From Cyanidioschyzon merolae (taxonomy: Eukaryota): a stretch of 64,000 bases of DNA. Positions within the stretch are counted from its first letter, which is position 1; every line of letters starts with the position of its first letter. The notes beneath the pieces were generated by a model that did no database searches, was not told where the DNA came from, and was given only the letters and a program-made list of their open reading frames with translations. The stretch is taken from the NCBI GenBank assembly GCA_000091205.1, contig AP006487.2. One strand, written 5' to 3'. Position numbers and translations under genes: made by a program. This document shows positions 18,985-60,375 of this stretch, piece after piece.

Positions 18985-20270
18985 GCTGTTTGCAGTGGCT
19001 TGAACACTGGTCGAGCTGTCTATATCTGCTTCTACTTCCTATTCCTCTCTGTTCCCTCGGATGGAAACGCGCAGGTCTGTCGATTACGTCTAGCTCCGTT
19101 GCCAGCAGTCGAAACATGTTGGTGGCAGCCTTGCAGTCCTGATTTCGCCGCATTCGGCTCTTGTCAACACATCGCAGAGAAAGACAGTAGTTGCGGTCTA
19201 GATTTCGCTTTCCATGTTCATCTTCTTTGGACACAGCGAGGCGCTTCGCAAAAGGTGAAATTCGGCGACGCTCAGGTGCTCCAAGATGTCAAGCACACCG
19301 CTTTTGCCTACGAGGATCATCCCGTGGCGCGTGAACGCTTACTTCATCGCACGCTACATGCCCTTGACGGGAACTAGAGGCTCTACTCGATGCCTTGCTC
19401 CATTTCGGCGCCTGGTACCGCACCTTGGCATCACGGGCTTTTCCTGGGCGATCCCCTTGACGAGTACTCGGTTCGCTGCAGAAGGGATACGCCACTCTAC
19501 TCGATAGAGGATTTGTGGAACGCACTCATGTCTGTCAGAGCACAAGTACTGGAAGGAGAATCTAGGCTGCAGATCGCGTCGAGAAATTTCGATCGGTCTA
19601 TGCTGGCTTGTACACTGCGAGGACGCACGCTCTGCTGGAAGTGATCGCGGCAGTGATTGGATTCCAAATGCAAGACTCTTTGCCACGCAAACGGGCAAGA
19701 TGATAGCCGCTGTGAGCATATTCCGTGAGAGCTATCAAGCTGCAATGGAATCCCGTTTCGTTTACAGGCACGAACATGCAAGTATTCGTATTTCGAATGG
19801 AAACGATTACTGGATGTGACAAGTTCAAAGAACTTTCGGCATGCGCTTGTGAAGAATCCGTCAACGAACGTCGTCAGTTGCGTTACCTAGTCCATCCAGC
19901 GCTGCACATTGCTGCACCTTCGATTCGACTTGGAATCGAAAAATCGAATTCTTGGAGAATGCATGATTTGAGCTTGCTAAACGTCAGGAAAGGAGAACAT
20001 CGGAGGCCTGCACCCATATATTGGATCACGATATCGGTTAGGTAACGAACGCTAGTTCGAGGGCGTCGCCAATGGTCTTGACGCCGGTAACGTCACGAAC
20101 TCCAGTGGGAAAGCGTCGCAGGAGCCACTCCAATGAGACGACCGAAAATCCTCGTTCTACCCATGAATCCAGCATAGCTCTGCCATGCATTTCAATGTCG
20201 TAGCCGTGCAACTAAGAAAAGTTCCGGAAGAAAATCGAAAGGTAAAAATAGATGGACCCGTGCTGTTTTC
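18985..20270 (-). pseudogene. TnpB/Fanzor-like RuvC nuclease relic, family II copy 1 (TnpB-sized, ~1.2 kb, frameshifted)
   Basis: Minus-strand fragments in order: SLEWLLRRFPTGVRDVTGVKTIGDALELAFV; VNETGF; CALTDMSAFHKSSIE (RuvC-I-like, D codon 19532-19530); TEYS; HVACDEVS; LRCVDKSRMRRNQDCKAATNMF (RuvC-III-like, D codon 19138-19136). It aligns by eye with copies at 22.2-23.5 kb and 59.1-60.4 kb. Multiple stops and frame changes. Confidence 0.55.
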
Positions 20271-20518
20271 CATTGTCATCGAACATAGGTATGGCATAGC
20301 GTGGACTCCTGCATGTAGCGACGTCGCCGCCGCCGCCGCCGGCGGTGCGCTTTAGAGACACGCCGAACAACCCCAACGACAAGGCTGCTTCTGTCTGTAG
20401 CGTTTCCGCGTTCTGGTAGCCGTCAACACGTTTCGCTTCGTTCGATGTACAAAGCTTTCGACGGTGCAGCGAACGCTTTCCCGTGTCCATGAAGAAGCGC
20501 TTTTAGTGGTGCTCAAGA

Positions 20519-21592
20519 ATGTCTCCGAAACGGAGCGTGGAGAAACGAAAGCAGTTTCGTGGCTTTCCATTCCACAAGTCGCGGGGTCAGCATATCCTAA
20601 AAAATGCAGCCGTCACGGACGCCATGGTGGAGAAGGCTCAGCTTCGACCCACAGACACCGTGCTAGAGGTTGGAGCAGGTACCGGCAACCTAACCGTGCG
20701 TCTGCTCAAGTATGCGAAGAAAGTGGTCGCTTTTGAGGTCGATCCGCGCATGATCATCGAGTTAACAAAACGGGTGCAAGCACTGGGCCCTGAACTTGCT
20801 AGTCGCTTGGAGGTCATCCACGGTGACGTGCTTCGTGCAAACTGGCCATTCTTCGACGTTTTCGTTGCCAATATACCGTACCAGATCTCGTCACCGCTCT
20901 TGTTCCGTTTGCTGGCGCATCGACCTGCCTTTCGCTCCGCAGTGATCATGTTTCAGCGCGAGTTTGCGCAACGGCTGATTGCTCGACCTGGTGATCCAGC
21001 ATATGGGCGTTTAGCTGTCAATGTGCAGCTCTTGGCCCGCGTAGAACACCTCATGAAAGTGAGCCGTAACAGTTTTCGACCTCCTCCACGGGTCGACAGT
21101 AGCGTCGTCCGTATTCAGTTGCGACAGCCGGCACCTCCCCTTGATTTCCGTGAATGGGATGGATTGCTGCGACTCTGCTTCGCTCGCAAGCATCGAACTT
21201 TGGGAAGTCTCTTTGGTCAGTCGCGGGTTGTGCAACTGCTTCAAACGAATCGAGCCCGCATTCGGGATGAGGCGGCAAAGTCTCAAAACACGACCTCTGC
21301 GGATACAACAGCGTCGGCGCTGATGGAGATGGTGAACGACACCGACTTGGCACTAGACGATACCGATGAGAACGAAAACGCTGCCAGCTCATTCGTGCCT
21401 CCTCCAGACGTGATGGACACAGTGCCATTGGAAGCTGAGGACGGATCTGCACTCACAGCTGTGCGTACGGAGATTCACGGCATACTGTCGGAACAGGGGC
21501 TGCTGCAGACACGTGCAGCGAAGATGAGCTTGGAGGATTTTTTACGGCTGCTTTGCACGCTACAGGCTCATGGCTTTCGTTTTACGAGCTGA
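20519..21592 (+). CDS. DIM1: 18S rRNA (adenine-N6,N6)-dimethyltransferase DIM1/KsgA
   Basis: Classic family motifs: [73 protein letters not shown] at 20519. Confidence 0.93.
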
Positions 21593-57661: not shown

Positions 57662-59139
57662 TGCTTCCTGGCAAGGCTAGCGCAGGTCTCGTGCCTGTGG
57701 CTGCGTTATCCACATGGGGGCCAGTGCCTTTCGCCCGCGTCTCGCTCTATGTGCGGCGACTTTGGGATCGCGCTCGCCTTTCACGCCAGTGTGTGTGTAT
57801 CTATGTGTGGGTTGCCCTGTCTTTCATGCAGGGCTTGCGTACCATGCGGGCGTTTGTTGCCCTGCCCTTCGTAGTTCGCATCAAGTTGGAAAGACGCGAG
57901 TTTCAAAAAGCTCCGGACTGGATCAAAGCACATGGCCAGGAGTTCCCGAACGAGCACGTAAAGTTTGAAGCTGCGCGTTGTTGTCTCTCGGAGGTCGAGA
58001 CGGACAGAAACGGATTTGTTTGGAAAGCCGACCAGGGCGCATTGGTCACGCAGGGCGCCTCGAGCGGAGTCCTGTTGCACACGAGAACGCTGTCGAAGCC
58101 GAAAGGAGCATTTTCGAGCCAGAGCGCCATCGGGGCTGTTGCGCGTAAAACGGATCTTGCGACTTTATGCAGCCGCTGCTTGCATTAAAAATAAGCCTAC
58201 TATGATCGTCTGCATGTCCTCGGTCGTGCGAAGATGCACGGCAGCTAGCTGGGTCTCAGCGGCGACAGTTTACGCTGGCCTGGTGGCATCGGCCTGTAAC
58301 CGCAGGGCACCCGAAGGGATGGGCATTTCGGCCGCGCTCCGGGGACATGGTGATAAGTCCCCGCATTCATGCGTGCCGAGCTTCCCTGAACGTCGGTAAT
58401 GATCGCGCACGTGAGCATTCCGGAGGACAGACTCAACAATCCAGCACCGTGAAAAATGGACGCGTATCGCCGGGACTCGAGCCCCGTGGACACCACGGCC
58501 AGCTGCGGTTGCCGTGGCAGAGCGCGAGCGGTGAGCGCCGGCTCCTTTTTGACGAATGCTTGACCCTGAGCCTGTCGATTTGCGTTCGAGAACCGCGAAC
58601 ACTCGCCGATGCTCTGGTTACGGATGCATCATCACAGCGCCACACGGCGCTGAACCGAAGGCACTGCAACACTGGGGGAGTGCATTGGCGTGCGGACGAT
58701 TCGCTGGGGGTTTCGCAAGACGTTCGGATTTGCTCGTCATGAAGCAGGTTGGGATCTGGGTCTCTCATATGCAATCGCCACTGGGCATCGAATGGATTTG
58801 TTGACCTCGAATGGGGTTCGGATCCCGCTGGCTGGGTAGCTCGGCTACGCGCGCACTGGGCGCGCTTGTGCTGCTCCGGAGCACGGACTACCGAAGCAAC
58901 ACAGCTGGACGCAGGGCTTGGATCCCGTCAGGCCAGAGAGGGCCGGCTTACTCAAGCGCGTTTTGAACACGTTGCAGGCGGTGAGCTCGAGGCACAATGT
59001 CTTCACATGCTGATCCTGAAGAAACTAAATTCACGCGCGGGGATTTTGTGTGCTGCAGACGAGGCTGGACACCGCAGCGACGACCTCCACCAATGGGAGA
59101 TTAAAATGGAGCACTGGGCTGCTCGCTATGTACGTGGAT

Positions 59140-60375
59140 AGGTTCTTCTCGACTTGTCTTTTCAGATGTAGAGCTGTGACTTTTCGAGAGCAGCAACAAG
59201 GGCTTGAGCACTCGTGTGTCGGTTTAGGATTCTCGGCCATAGTTTCAGAGTGGTTTTTTCGACGCTCTTCCACTAGGACTCGTTACATCACCGAAATCAA
59301 GACCATTCCCGATGTTCCGGAACTAGGGTTCGTAAACGAACCAATATTCGTCTCCAATGTGTACGTAAAGGTTTCCAATCTTCTCAATATCTTACTTTTG
59401 TAGCGTGCTCAAGCCACGTATGCTTGTAGTTTTGTCTCTTTCTTTCTCAAGGCAACTCATTGATATCGCAATGCTCGCCATTGCTTCGACGAGGGAAAAT
59501 GCTGGACGTCGTCCCTCGGAGACTTGTTCACGAGTTCATACCGACAATACGCGCAACATGCCACTTCGAATCATGCATTGCTTTCAAGCGGTACACTCAA
59601 TGCTCTCTGCGGCGGTCAACGAAACAGGATTCGCTATCTGCCTCGTACGTCTCACAGGACATACTTCCGGAGGCTGCAGTCTGTCTCTATTTTGCCTGGA
59701 ACGTTGTCTAGATTTCGGAATTGAGTCATCCGGGTGTCCGTGTCGAGTGCTACGTACGTCACTGTTTTGCACGAAGGAAGCGTCAAGGGATCGAATACCT
59801 TCGACTTGTTATCCAATCTGGATTTACCCCCCGATGTTTGTTTCATCACGAACAACATCGTGTTCCACCAATACGTTATCGAACGGAACAGGGCGCGGTT
59901 GGACTTGCAGCCATCAGCGCCGTCGCCGAGTACATCGCTCAGATCAAGCACGTGATCGCAGAGCACGGCGCCGGGTGCGGAAACTGCAATGGATATCAAG
60001 GGGAATCTTCTCTTCTCCGAAATGGCAAGTAGCCTGCGATGAAGCACGGGATCGCGCGCTGTAGGACGGCGCTCGGAGGACGAGGAGATATGGTCGATGC
60101 ATAGGCACACTTGGCAGCGGTCAAATGTCACCGCTGTGAAGCGCGGACCCCAGCTGTACACAAAAACAGATGAAAACAGCAAGCGAAGCGCGGATCGCGA
60201 TTTTCACCTGTGCATGGTTTGCGTGACCAGCAGCCGGACGCAACGGAATCGGAACTCGAATGCCGCCATCAACAACCCGCGAATGCTGAGAACGGAACCG
60301 AAGACTCACGAGAGACCAGCATATGTAGATCAGCAGATAATCGAGAAGGAAAGAAAGTAGTCTCAGAAAATGCAC
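59140..60375 (+). pseudogene. TnpB/Fanzor-like RuvC nuclease relic, family II copy 3
   Basis: In order: VSEWFFRRSSTRTRYITEIKTIPDVPELGFV; VNETGF; CFITNNIVFHQ (RuvC-I position, N codon 59854-59856); AEYIAQIKHVIAEHGAG; NVTAVKRGPQLYTKTDENSKRS (resembles the v.v.E.yTSKtC..C block); HLCMVCVTSSRTQRNRNSNAAINN (C-x2-C plus RuvC-III position, N codon 60253-60255). Several frame changes. Confidence 0.55.

Follow-up and report, generated by a model that had tools for sequence, protein, structure and literature searches.

Decayed Fanzor1-bearing DNA transposons in a segment of Cyanidioschyzon merolae chromosome 5: copies of CMe-1A and a second family that is very probably an internal-deletion derivative of a mariner-type element

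Mariner elements that carry a Fanzor1 gene have already been described, and CMe-1A was given as the sole Fanzor1 family for Cyanidioschyzon merolae, a red alga: a repeat of 3169 bp with ~150 copies, ~80% identical to a consensus which has neither terminal inverted repeats (TIRs) nor a transposase and was left unclassified (PMC3627910). An interspersed repeat of 3.2 kb, transcribed and randomly spread in 253 copies over the genome (~5% of it), had been reported earlier, and its truncated open reading frame (ORF) was found to be related to WSV486 of white spot syndrome virus (WSSV) (Nozaki 2007, PMC1955436). Because the sizes agree and a WSSV Fanzor1 was included by Bao and Jurka in 2013 (PMC3627910), the 253-copy repeat is evidently CMe-1A. 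The presence of Fanzor relics in C. merolae, noted as a repeat in 2007 and published as Fanzor1 in 2013, is thus already known. Here, we analysed a 64-kb stretch of DNA (the window), identified by its sequence as part of chromosome 5 of C. merolae 10D, in which a first-pass annotation had reported seven decayed TnpB/Fanzor-type RuvC nuclease genes in two families. Family I is identified as CMe-1A. Family II is a second, previously undescribed Fanzor1-derived family of this organism with defined ends; its domains and repeats place it among the Tc1/mariner-IS630 elements, as a non-autonomous member of ~1.4 kb.

The seven motif strings on which the two families had been founded were each recovered exactly once by a six-frame search, in the frames and on the strands reported. 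They are true RuvC-III remnants of the TnpB/Fanzor type in both families, far above chance, as judged by DNA homology, matches to the CMe-1 protein and a Fanzor1 hidden Markov model (HMM). Both families therefore hold real Fanzor1 C-terminal sequence, in the form of pseudogenes within transposons. The description of every copy as broken also proved right, since each requires several frame changes and contains in-frame stops; all Fanzor and transposase copies in the window being broken, none can be active. On the other hand, seven was an undercount: two further family II bodies (c4 and c41), a family II 3' end (c0) and a more diverged relic (c32) are also present (Table 1), which brings the DNA transposons with Fanzor1 in the window to about a dozen copies, all of them dead. 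Family I is CMe-1A, and it is very probable that family II, now decayed, arose by internal deletion from a composite transposon with the order TIR, DDE_3 transposase, Fanzor1 and TIR.

The family II loci are homologous to one another at the DNA level. Self-comparison, tblastn and the location of element ends gave six copies in the window (~6.9 kb), twice the three first recognised. One of them, c0, consists of the 3' end only; window positions 43-342 show peptide similarity to the sequences that flank c4 and c41 on their 3' side, the body of c0 lies upstream of the window, and its complete form is found in metagenome locus L036. Raw ORF fragments of both families gave no relevant match on Pfam, being too short and too decayed. 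A five-copy consensus of family II reached only sub-threshold scores for DDE_3 (22.7 bits) and TNB (15 bits), and no homologous proteins and no match among PDB sequences were found with this consensus or its profile. A degenerate DNA pattern of 38 nt, taken from the best conserved family II stretch, matched four window copies and was also searched in metagenome contigs of the Joint Genome Institute (JGI), where it had 34 matches, 16 of them due to chance. After removal of same-locus duplicates, 11 distinct copies from the window and the JGI contigs were available, which yielded a consensus of 1375 bp to which each copy is ~70-74% identical. Apparent single-frame full-length tblastn matches in metagenome loci were rejected as intact genes; they turned out to be the decayed C. 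merolae copies again, stops included.

The first-pass annotation had recommended searching frameshift-corrected translations with TnpB/Fanzor profiles. Profile searches of the 11-copy consensus were positive for DDE_3, for PF07282 and for a Fanzor1 C-terminal HMM. The 5' two-thirds of family II correspond to a mariner/IS630-type DDE_3 transposase with a helix-turn-helix (HTH) and the first two catalytic aspartates, cut off after …CFIMDNIAFHK. The transposase frame of the consensus runs from MYSLD… through the HTH and …FVAIDETAFDSSLIPLTGYAPRG… to this point, and it matches Pfam DDE_3 with E 2.3e-9 and 37.7 bits (cutoff 28.6) over profile positions 3-100 of 146, besides a weak match to HTH_33. 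The third catalytic residue of the DDE triad is missing, as the transposase ends after the second Asp (DNIAFHK), and with its catalytic triad incomplete family II is non-autonomous.

The Fanzor1 part is confined to the last ~165 codons and lies in a different frame of the consensus, …ILYRMEQRAL…VIVGYGTGRGN…PSVPVKGMYRAMKQAF…VVDIWEHLTTAKCHRC…CMKC…RNRDLNAAINILRLL. It includes the zinc ribbon and RuvC-III (CHRC…CMKC…RNRDLNAAINIL) and matches PF07282 (Cas12f1-like_TNB) with E 1.4e-7 and 32 bits (cutoff 26.3). Green algae, oomycetes and slime moulds were the sole sources of the Fanzor1 C-terminal HMM, which thus contained no C. merolae sequence; it gave E 6.6e-19 for the family II consensus and 1.4e-15 for the positive control CMe-1 (E 0.52 on PF07282), through identity with which the zinc ribbon and RuvC-III are assigned in family I, and single family II copies ranged from 2e-5 to 0.1 against 1561 window peptides. 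RuvC-II is represented by VVDIWEHLTT, which aligned with vdEyrTsk of the HMM; c19 and c22 retain its Glu, whereas c59, c4 and c41 do not. Compared with the last 162 residues of P0043, an intact Fanzor1 of 682 amino acids (aa), the Fanzor frame showed 50% identity over 153 aa from residue 521 (E 4e-49). Family II contains no Fanzor sequence before the equivalent of that residue, and the RuvC-I Asp and the N-terminal REC/WED region are absent. A junction of the two halves after '…AYSP' was ruled out: homology in the Fanzor frame already starts before that point, at ILYRMEQRAL, and the match of 'YSP' to the transposase is coincidental.

These results bear directly on the reading that all seven loci are decayed complete TnpB/Fanzor genes, with family II running from RuvC-I to RuvC-III in order. 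The C-terminal landmarks are indeed real in both families, and one family I copy, c48, keeps RuvC-I (GVDPGNTN) as well as the C-terminus. However, the region of family II taken for RuvC-I belongs to the DDE_3 domain, with HTH motifs upstream of it, as indicated by both the Pfam score given above and the similarity to intact transposases described below; Fanzor homology starts three-quarters of the way into the 682-aa relative; and three of the four family I loci, which had been taken for genes of ~1.6 kb, are fragments or internal-deletion derivatives of 350-530 bp. An artefact of frame choice as the source of the DDE_3 match is disfavoured by the 11-copy consensus, in which the domain is read in a single frame. 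We consider the complete-gene reading, which the profile and pairwise results refute for family II, very unlikely. Among the landmarks that had been listed for family II, the DE..T..T block, the CxxC pairs and NAAxN are true Fanzor features, whereas the 'RuvC-I-like' hydrophobic-(D/N)-x-G segment (AIDETAF in the consensus) contains the first catalytic Asp of DDE_3 and was rejected as RuvC-I. The window loci are Fanzor1-derived remnants and not Fanzor genes, because family II lacks RuvC-I and c48, which alone keeps GVDPGNTN, lacks RuvC-II. Two cautions follow for annotation: internal-deletion derivatives of two-gene transposons can mimic decayed nuclease genes, and the 'D-E-T-G' motif of a DDE transposase can be confused with RuvC-I.

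The ends of family II were defined from the alignment of the 11 copies, over which conservation rises and falls sharply. The TIRs are 28 bp long (TACACCYGTGTCAGAWTWAAATGGAACA); the 5' terminal consensus, TGCACCTGTGTCAGATTAAAATGGAACA, and the reverse-complemented 3' terminal consensus, TACACCCGTGTCAGAATTAAATGGAACA, match at 25 of 28 positions. When the window was scanned with the 28-mer at up to 8 mismatches, all four matches fell at family II ends, compared with 0-1 in shuffled sequences. A repeat search found no TIRs in single family II copies, in which they become visible only through the multi-copy alignment, and at c24 and c32, of which there is one copy each, no TIRs could be delimited. 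At most family II ends the outermost dinucleotide is TA, or TG/TC.

Intact elements with the proposed parental layout do exist. The family II Fanzor part matched relic ORFs and two intact-looking C-termini. An exhaustive HMMER search seeded by one of the latter yielded complete Fanzor1 proteins, 680-800 aa long, and two of their genes lie directly downstream of a co-oriented DDE_3 transposase gene (loci L044 and L045). The L044 element (L044:4013-7158) is intact and 3.1 kb long, and encodes a 310-aa DDE_3 transposase and a 686-aa Fanzor1 in genes that overlap by 8 nt. It is bounded by TIRs of 34 nt (4013-4046 and 7125-7158), the arms of which are 76% complementary and fall into one sequence family with the repeats of family II. 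In L045 the two proteins have 321 and 764 aa, respectively. The family II transposase consensus aligns from residue 1 (MYSLD…) to the transposases of both loci with 33% identity (E 4e-30 for L044 and 2e-30 for L045). A further intact relative, P0033, had no match among PDB sequences. The neighbours of the L044 element are D5_N/PriCT_2 primase and Endonuclease_7 genes; this context is virus-like, which agrees with a spread of Fanzor elements by viruses, as suggested earlier.

The parent of family II would thus have been a composite transposon of ~3.1 kb, which moved by the cut-and-paste action of its DDE transposase. Its Fanzor1 would have been an RNA-guided DNA endonuclease and, by analogy with TnpB, may have had a role in the persistence of the element. 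One internal deletion, reaching from just after DNxxHK (…IMDNIAFHK, with the second catalytic Asp) to about three-quarters through Fanzor1, would have joined the remaining parts out of frame. The shortened element would have retained both termini, could have been moved by transposase acting in trans, and would have multiplied before it decayed; the amplification of family II fits this course because both termini survive and allow movement in trans. The same juxtaposition might also have been produced by nested insertion or recombination, in which a mariner transposon came to lie in or beside a separate Fanzor element. Juxtaposed relics are common in the window (c22, a DDE_3 relic and c24 lie within 2.7 kb, and c41 abuts c42), and CMe-1A itself has no transposase (PMC3627910), but the same junction occurs in 11 of 11 copies and the whole unit is enclosed by one inverted-repeat pair. 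Intact relatives hold their adjacent or overlapping co-oriented genes within one pair of TIRs of that sequence family, and nested insertion needs extra truncations where a single deletion of the composite layout suffices. We therefore regard nested insertion as improbable.

A similar chimera was detected outside the window. P0052 (L042:516-1865) is an intact, in-frame protein of 449 aa that consists of an HTH, DDE_3 as far as DNASIHK and the last ~205 aa of Fanzor1, with Pfam matches to HTH, DDE_3 and TNB; at a distance of 30 bp it is preceded by a 5' repeat like that of family II. Its two halves are 46% and 65% identical to a separate intact transposase and a full-length Fanzor1, respectively, and a search of 5.8 billion proteins gave no second chimera that is intact. 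As a singleton with close unfused relatives, P0052 was rejected as a conserved fusion protein, and we read it as a young deletion derivative.

The architecture of P0052, and its transposase breakpoint almost at the position of that in family II, could nevertheless be taken to mean that the chimera is a functional fusion, either a regulator formed by a truncated transposase or a hybrid nuclease of the RNase H fold, or else a source of omega RNA in trans, of which the window copies are dead descendants. In characterised systems, the guide RNAs of TnpB and Fanzor are encoded at the 3' end, and in family II conservation is highest there. Against this stand the isolated occurrence of P0052 beside separate intact relatives, the different frames of the two halves in family II, the loss of the third DDE residue and of the RuvC-I Asp from the chimera, and the many stops in all window copies. 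The 229-nt 3' consensus folded no better than shuffled sequences (z = -0.79), although neutrally decaying dead copies cannot show covariation, so that a missing signal carries no information; in the window as a whole, Rfam families had no match and a tRNA scan was empty. A functional fusion appears extremely unlikely to us. A related idea is that the recurrent chimeras (family II, c24, c32 and P0052) were selected as parasites or regulators, that is, as repressors formed by a truncated transposase or as 'guide-RNA-only' satellites using Fanzor and transposase in trans. It arises because the HTH half is kept and the 3' end of Fanzor, the guide-RNA site, stands beside the right terminal repeat. 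If it were true, the near-identical breakpoint in family II and P0052 would reflect selection rather than chance, but we give this idea very little weight.

Several points weigh against the origin of family II by internal deletion of a composite that we prefer. A full-length composite was not found in the C. merolae sequence covered, which was less than the whole genome, and the parent is modelled on relatives from other organisms whose proteins are 33-50% identical. The out-of-frame junction could be an error of reconstruction, since no more than 11 copies, ~72% identical, went into the family II consensus. Independent random deletions do not obviously predict that family II and the singleton P0052 should share nearly the same transposase truncation after DNxxHK. 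A TA target-site duplication is inseparable from the outermost bases of the repeat itself, TA or TG in most copies, which leaves this mariner hallmark unproven. Finally, the CMe-1A consensus lacks TIRs and transposase (PMC3627910), and family I is tied to the mariner-type transposase by a single juxtaposition, at c24, which is possibly a nested insertion.

The reference sequences for family I, a DNA consensus for CMe-1A and a protein, CMe-1, of 734 aa, are those published with PMC3627910. The four loci are 73-88% identical to the CMe-1A consensus by blastn, and tblastn with the CMe-1 protein gave E values from 8e-180 to about 2e-6 at these loci. The C-terminus of CMe-1, …KRMEFVNRDFNAAINIRR, is the family I motif of the first-pass annotation, which had been unable to assign either family to a named lineage; for family I that lineage is CMe-1A/CMe-1, published in 2013. 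The longest copy, c48 (2.1 kb), matches CMe-1 across three frames (E 8e-180). It has lost the RuvC-II/Zn region through a 515-bp internal deletion and contains two frameshifts; in translation RuvC-I is kept (GVDPGNTN) and the RuvC-III Asp is mutated (KRGFNAAINL). RuvC-II is absent from the other three loci as well. A 75-bp tandem duplication lies within c48, where positions 48430-48583 match consensus ~2117-2251 twice.

The remaining family I loci are short. In c24, positions 24555-24836 are 73% identical to CMe-1A 2737-3020, and the corresponding blastn values are 77-81% for c42 (41913-42288) and 73-88% for c54 (54527-55006). c42 and c54 are collinear over 41906-42328 and form a small subfamily of their own. 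Pieces of the CMe-1A 5' region lie just 3' of c42, as an inverted pair 190 bp apart (42453-42623 on the minus and 42810-43013 on the plus strand, both members matching one and the same part, CMe-1A 84-282) plus 43237-43261; they correspond to TE-N2_CMe, the relation of which to CMe-1A has been reported (PMC3627910).

The density of relics in the window had been called striking, which seems to apply to one family only. Family I contributes four pieces of ~4 kb in total. Since coverage of ~5% of the genome predicts about one CMe-1A copy, or ~3.2 kb, per 64 kb (from the figures of PMC1955436), this amount is unremarkable and near the genome average. Family II alone looks locally enriched, with its six copies, and this enrichment may be real. 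On another C. merolae-like contig, L015 (Ga0080006_1142693), two family II copies and a fragment occur within ~6 kb (187-6472), which hints that family II is clustered elsewhere too.

Two further regions of the window, at 23.7-24.9 kb and 31.2-32.6 kb, are relics of a transposase plus a Fanzor1 tail with different breakpoints; together with P0052 they count as independent deletion chimeras, in favour of the origin proposed for family II. In the first, a nearly complete DDE_3 transposase relic lies directly upstream of c24. All three catalytic residues can be recognised in it (VDETSF, LLDNEVFH and KPIE), but it is interrupted by stops; by BLASTP it is related to the transposases of the composites L044 (2e-11), L045 (6e-11) and PUl-2 (2e-11). 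In the second region, a weak DDE_3-like relic precedes c32, a third, diverged Fanzor1-like relic. Like family II, the 32-kb relic probably represents a new mariner-type carrier of Fanzor1, in the form of a deletion derivative.

Table 1. Transposon-derived features of the window (position 1 is its first nucleotide)
Feature	Position	Strand	Content and evidence
Family II c0, 3' end and 3' TIR only	1-234	+	TIR at 207-234, 5 mismatches to 28-bp consensus
Family II c4	3691-5065	+	Truncated DDE_3 and Fanzor1 C-terminal remnant …LRNRESNAATCILRLL; tblastn, self-comparison; 38-nt pattern at 4855-4892
Family II c19	18921-20292	-	Transposase-consensus tblastn 20155-19434, E 1e-55; motif 19112-19174
Family II c22	22184-23530	+	Best-preserved 5' TIR 22184-22211 (3 mismatches), degenerate 3' end; motif 23308-23370
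Family II c41, 5'-degenerate	40757-~41886	-	3' TIR 40757-40784; Fanzor remnant …RMLRTREENAAISILRLL; blastn to c19, c59, c4
Family II c59, full length from TIR to TIR	59086-60482	+	5' TIR 59086-59113, partial 3' TIR 60469-60481; transposase-consensus tblastn E 3e-38; motif 60208-60276
Family I c24, 3' fragment (CMe-1 aa 612-731)	24555-24904	+	RuvC-III intact, VNRDENAAINI; tblastn E 1.3e-25
Family I c42, ~0.5-kb internal-deletion derivative	41906-42435	+	CMe-1A 826-894 joined to 2862-2944 and beyond (blastn)
Family I c48, longest CMe-1A copy	46956-49015	+	Consensus 648-2251 and 2767-3145, 85-88% (blastn)
Family I c54, ~0.5-kb internal-deletion derivative	54500-55006	+	CMe-1A 847-964, 2908-2987, 3063-3088; tblastn E 1.7e-6
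CMe-1A 5' region pieces (= TE-N2_CMe)	42453-43261	mixed	CMe-1A 84-282 at 76-81%, 510-534 (blastn)
DDE_3 transposase relic, nearly complete	23676-24530	+	HTH, VDETSF, LLDNEVFH, PPYAPxFKPIE; Pfam DDE_3 E 2.1e-11, 44.3 bits (cutoff 28.6)
Third DDE_3-like relic (FISCNEMSF…GYANR…)	31190-31411	+	Family II transposase tblastn E 4e-4 in the window, 1e-5 locally; weak
Third, diverged Fanzor1-like relic c32 (CMe-1 aa 509-689)	32069-32571	+	…VPGNGAG…FHTTPVDAFRT…; tblastn 30% over 144 aa, E 6e-11, three in-frame stops
Motif string of the first-pass annotation (one)	19112-19174	-	Six-frame search
Motif strings of the first-pass annotation (six)	23308-23370, 24710-24763, 42239-42289, 48762-48815, 54817-54864, 60208-60276	+	Six-frame search

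The assignment of the window is based on three of its proteins, which are identical to BAM79367, BAM79380 and BAM79387 of C. merolae 10D, and because the window comes from this organism its characterisation as part of a compact, intron-free genome was correct. The G+C content is ~55%, and the long ORFs are ordinary eukaryotic genes, such as those for PIP5K, a PAK kinase, a DEAH helicase, SepSecS and Rsm22. The SepSecS (O-phosphoseryl-tRNA(Sec) selenium transferase) gene, at 11046-12689 on the plus strand (E 6e-120), belongs to the selenocysteine machinery in this red alga. Tandem repeats were observed at 13976-15345 (a 77-bp unit repeated 17.8 times with 96% matches, in the part of the window with the lowest G+C content, ~50%) and at 33700-34087 (three copies of a 130-bp unit with 98% identity). 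An ORF of 531 aa on the minus strand (53117-54712), with a weak match to PP2C, overlaps at its N-terminal end the CMe-1A-derived fragment 54527-54650 on the opposite strand, and the start codon of this gene may lie further in.

C. merolae is a model alga prized as 'transposon-poor', and a count published in 2007 put the class II elements of its entire genome at only eight. In the window alone, ~13 kb of 64 kb, or about 20%, is transposon relic, which suggests that this count was too low. The results also provide evidence that Fanzor1 of C. merolae travelled in elements of the mariner/IS630 type, whereas CMe-1A had been left unclassified in 2013.

Compared with known systems, the family I copies of the window differ in nothing essential from CMe-1A, being from the same organism and at the same level of decay. 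SpuFz1 is reportedly an experimentally characterised Fanzor nuclease (described by Saito et al. in 2023). With Fanzor proteins of this type and with bacterial TnpB, the window remnants share the RuvC-II Glu in 'DE[FY]RTS', the CxxC…CxxC pairs (TNB, PF07282) and the RuvC-III motif RDxNAAxN. They differ in that every window copy has an incomplete RuvC triad and an interrupted frame. No guide-RNA candidate could be supported, and no solved structure was matched in sequence by the five-copy profile of family II or by P0033.

The closest relatives of family II are the composites, namely PUl-1, PUl-2, PGv-1 and others (PMC3627910) together with the intact metagenomic L044 and L045, in which, as in family II, an IS630/mariner DDE_3 transposase lies upstream of a co-oriented Fanzor1 between short TIRs. 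The Fanzor1 proteins of L044 and L045 are 45-50% identical to the family II Fanzor part, and the TIR family (ACACC…AATGRAACA) is common to them. Family II differs in length (1.4 kb versus 3.1-3.6 kb), in the lack of the last third of the transposase and of the first ~75% of Fanzor1 including RuvC-I, and in being decayed and out of frame.

Non-autonomous DNA transposons that arose by internal deletion include Ds from Ac, KP from the P element, and derivatives resembling MITEs (miniature transposable elements with inverted repeats). As in family II, their termini are kept, the coding interior is deleted at varied breakpoints, and the transposase is supplied in trans. What sets family II apart from them is that its deletion spans two genes, and the product resembles a chimeric gene with a 3' end that looks like a TnpB/Fanzor pseudogene.

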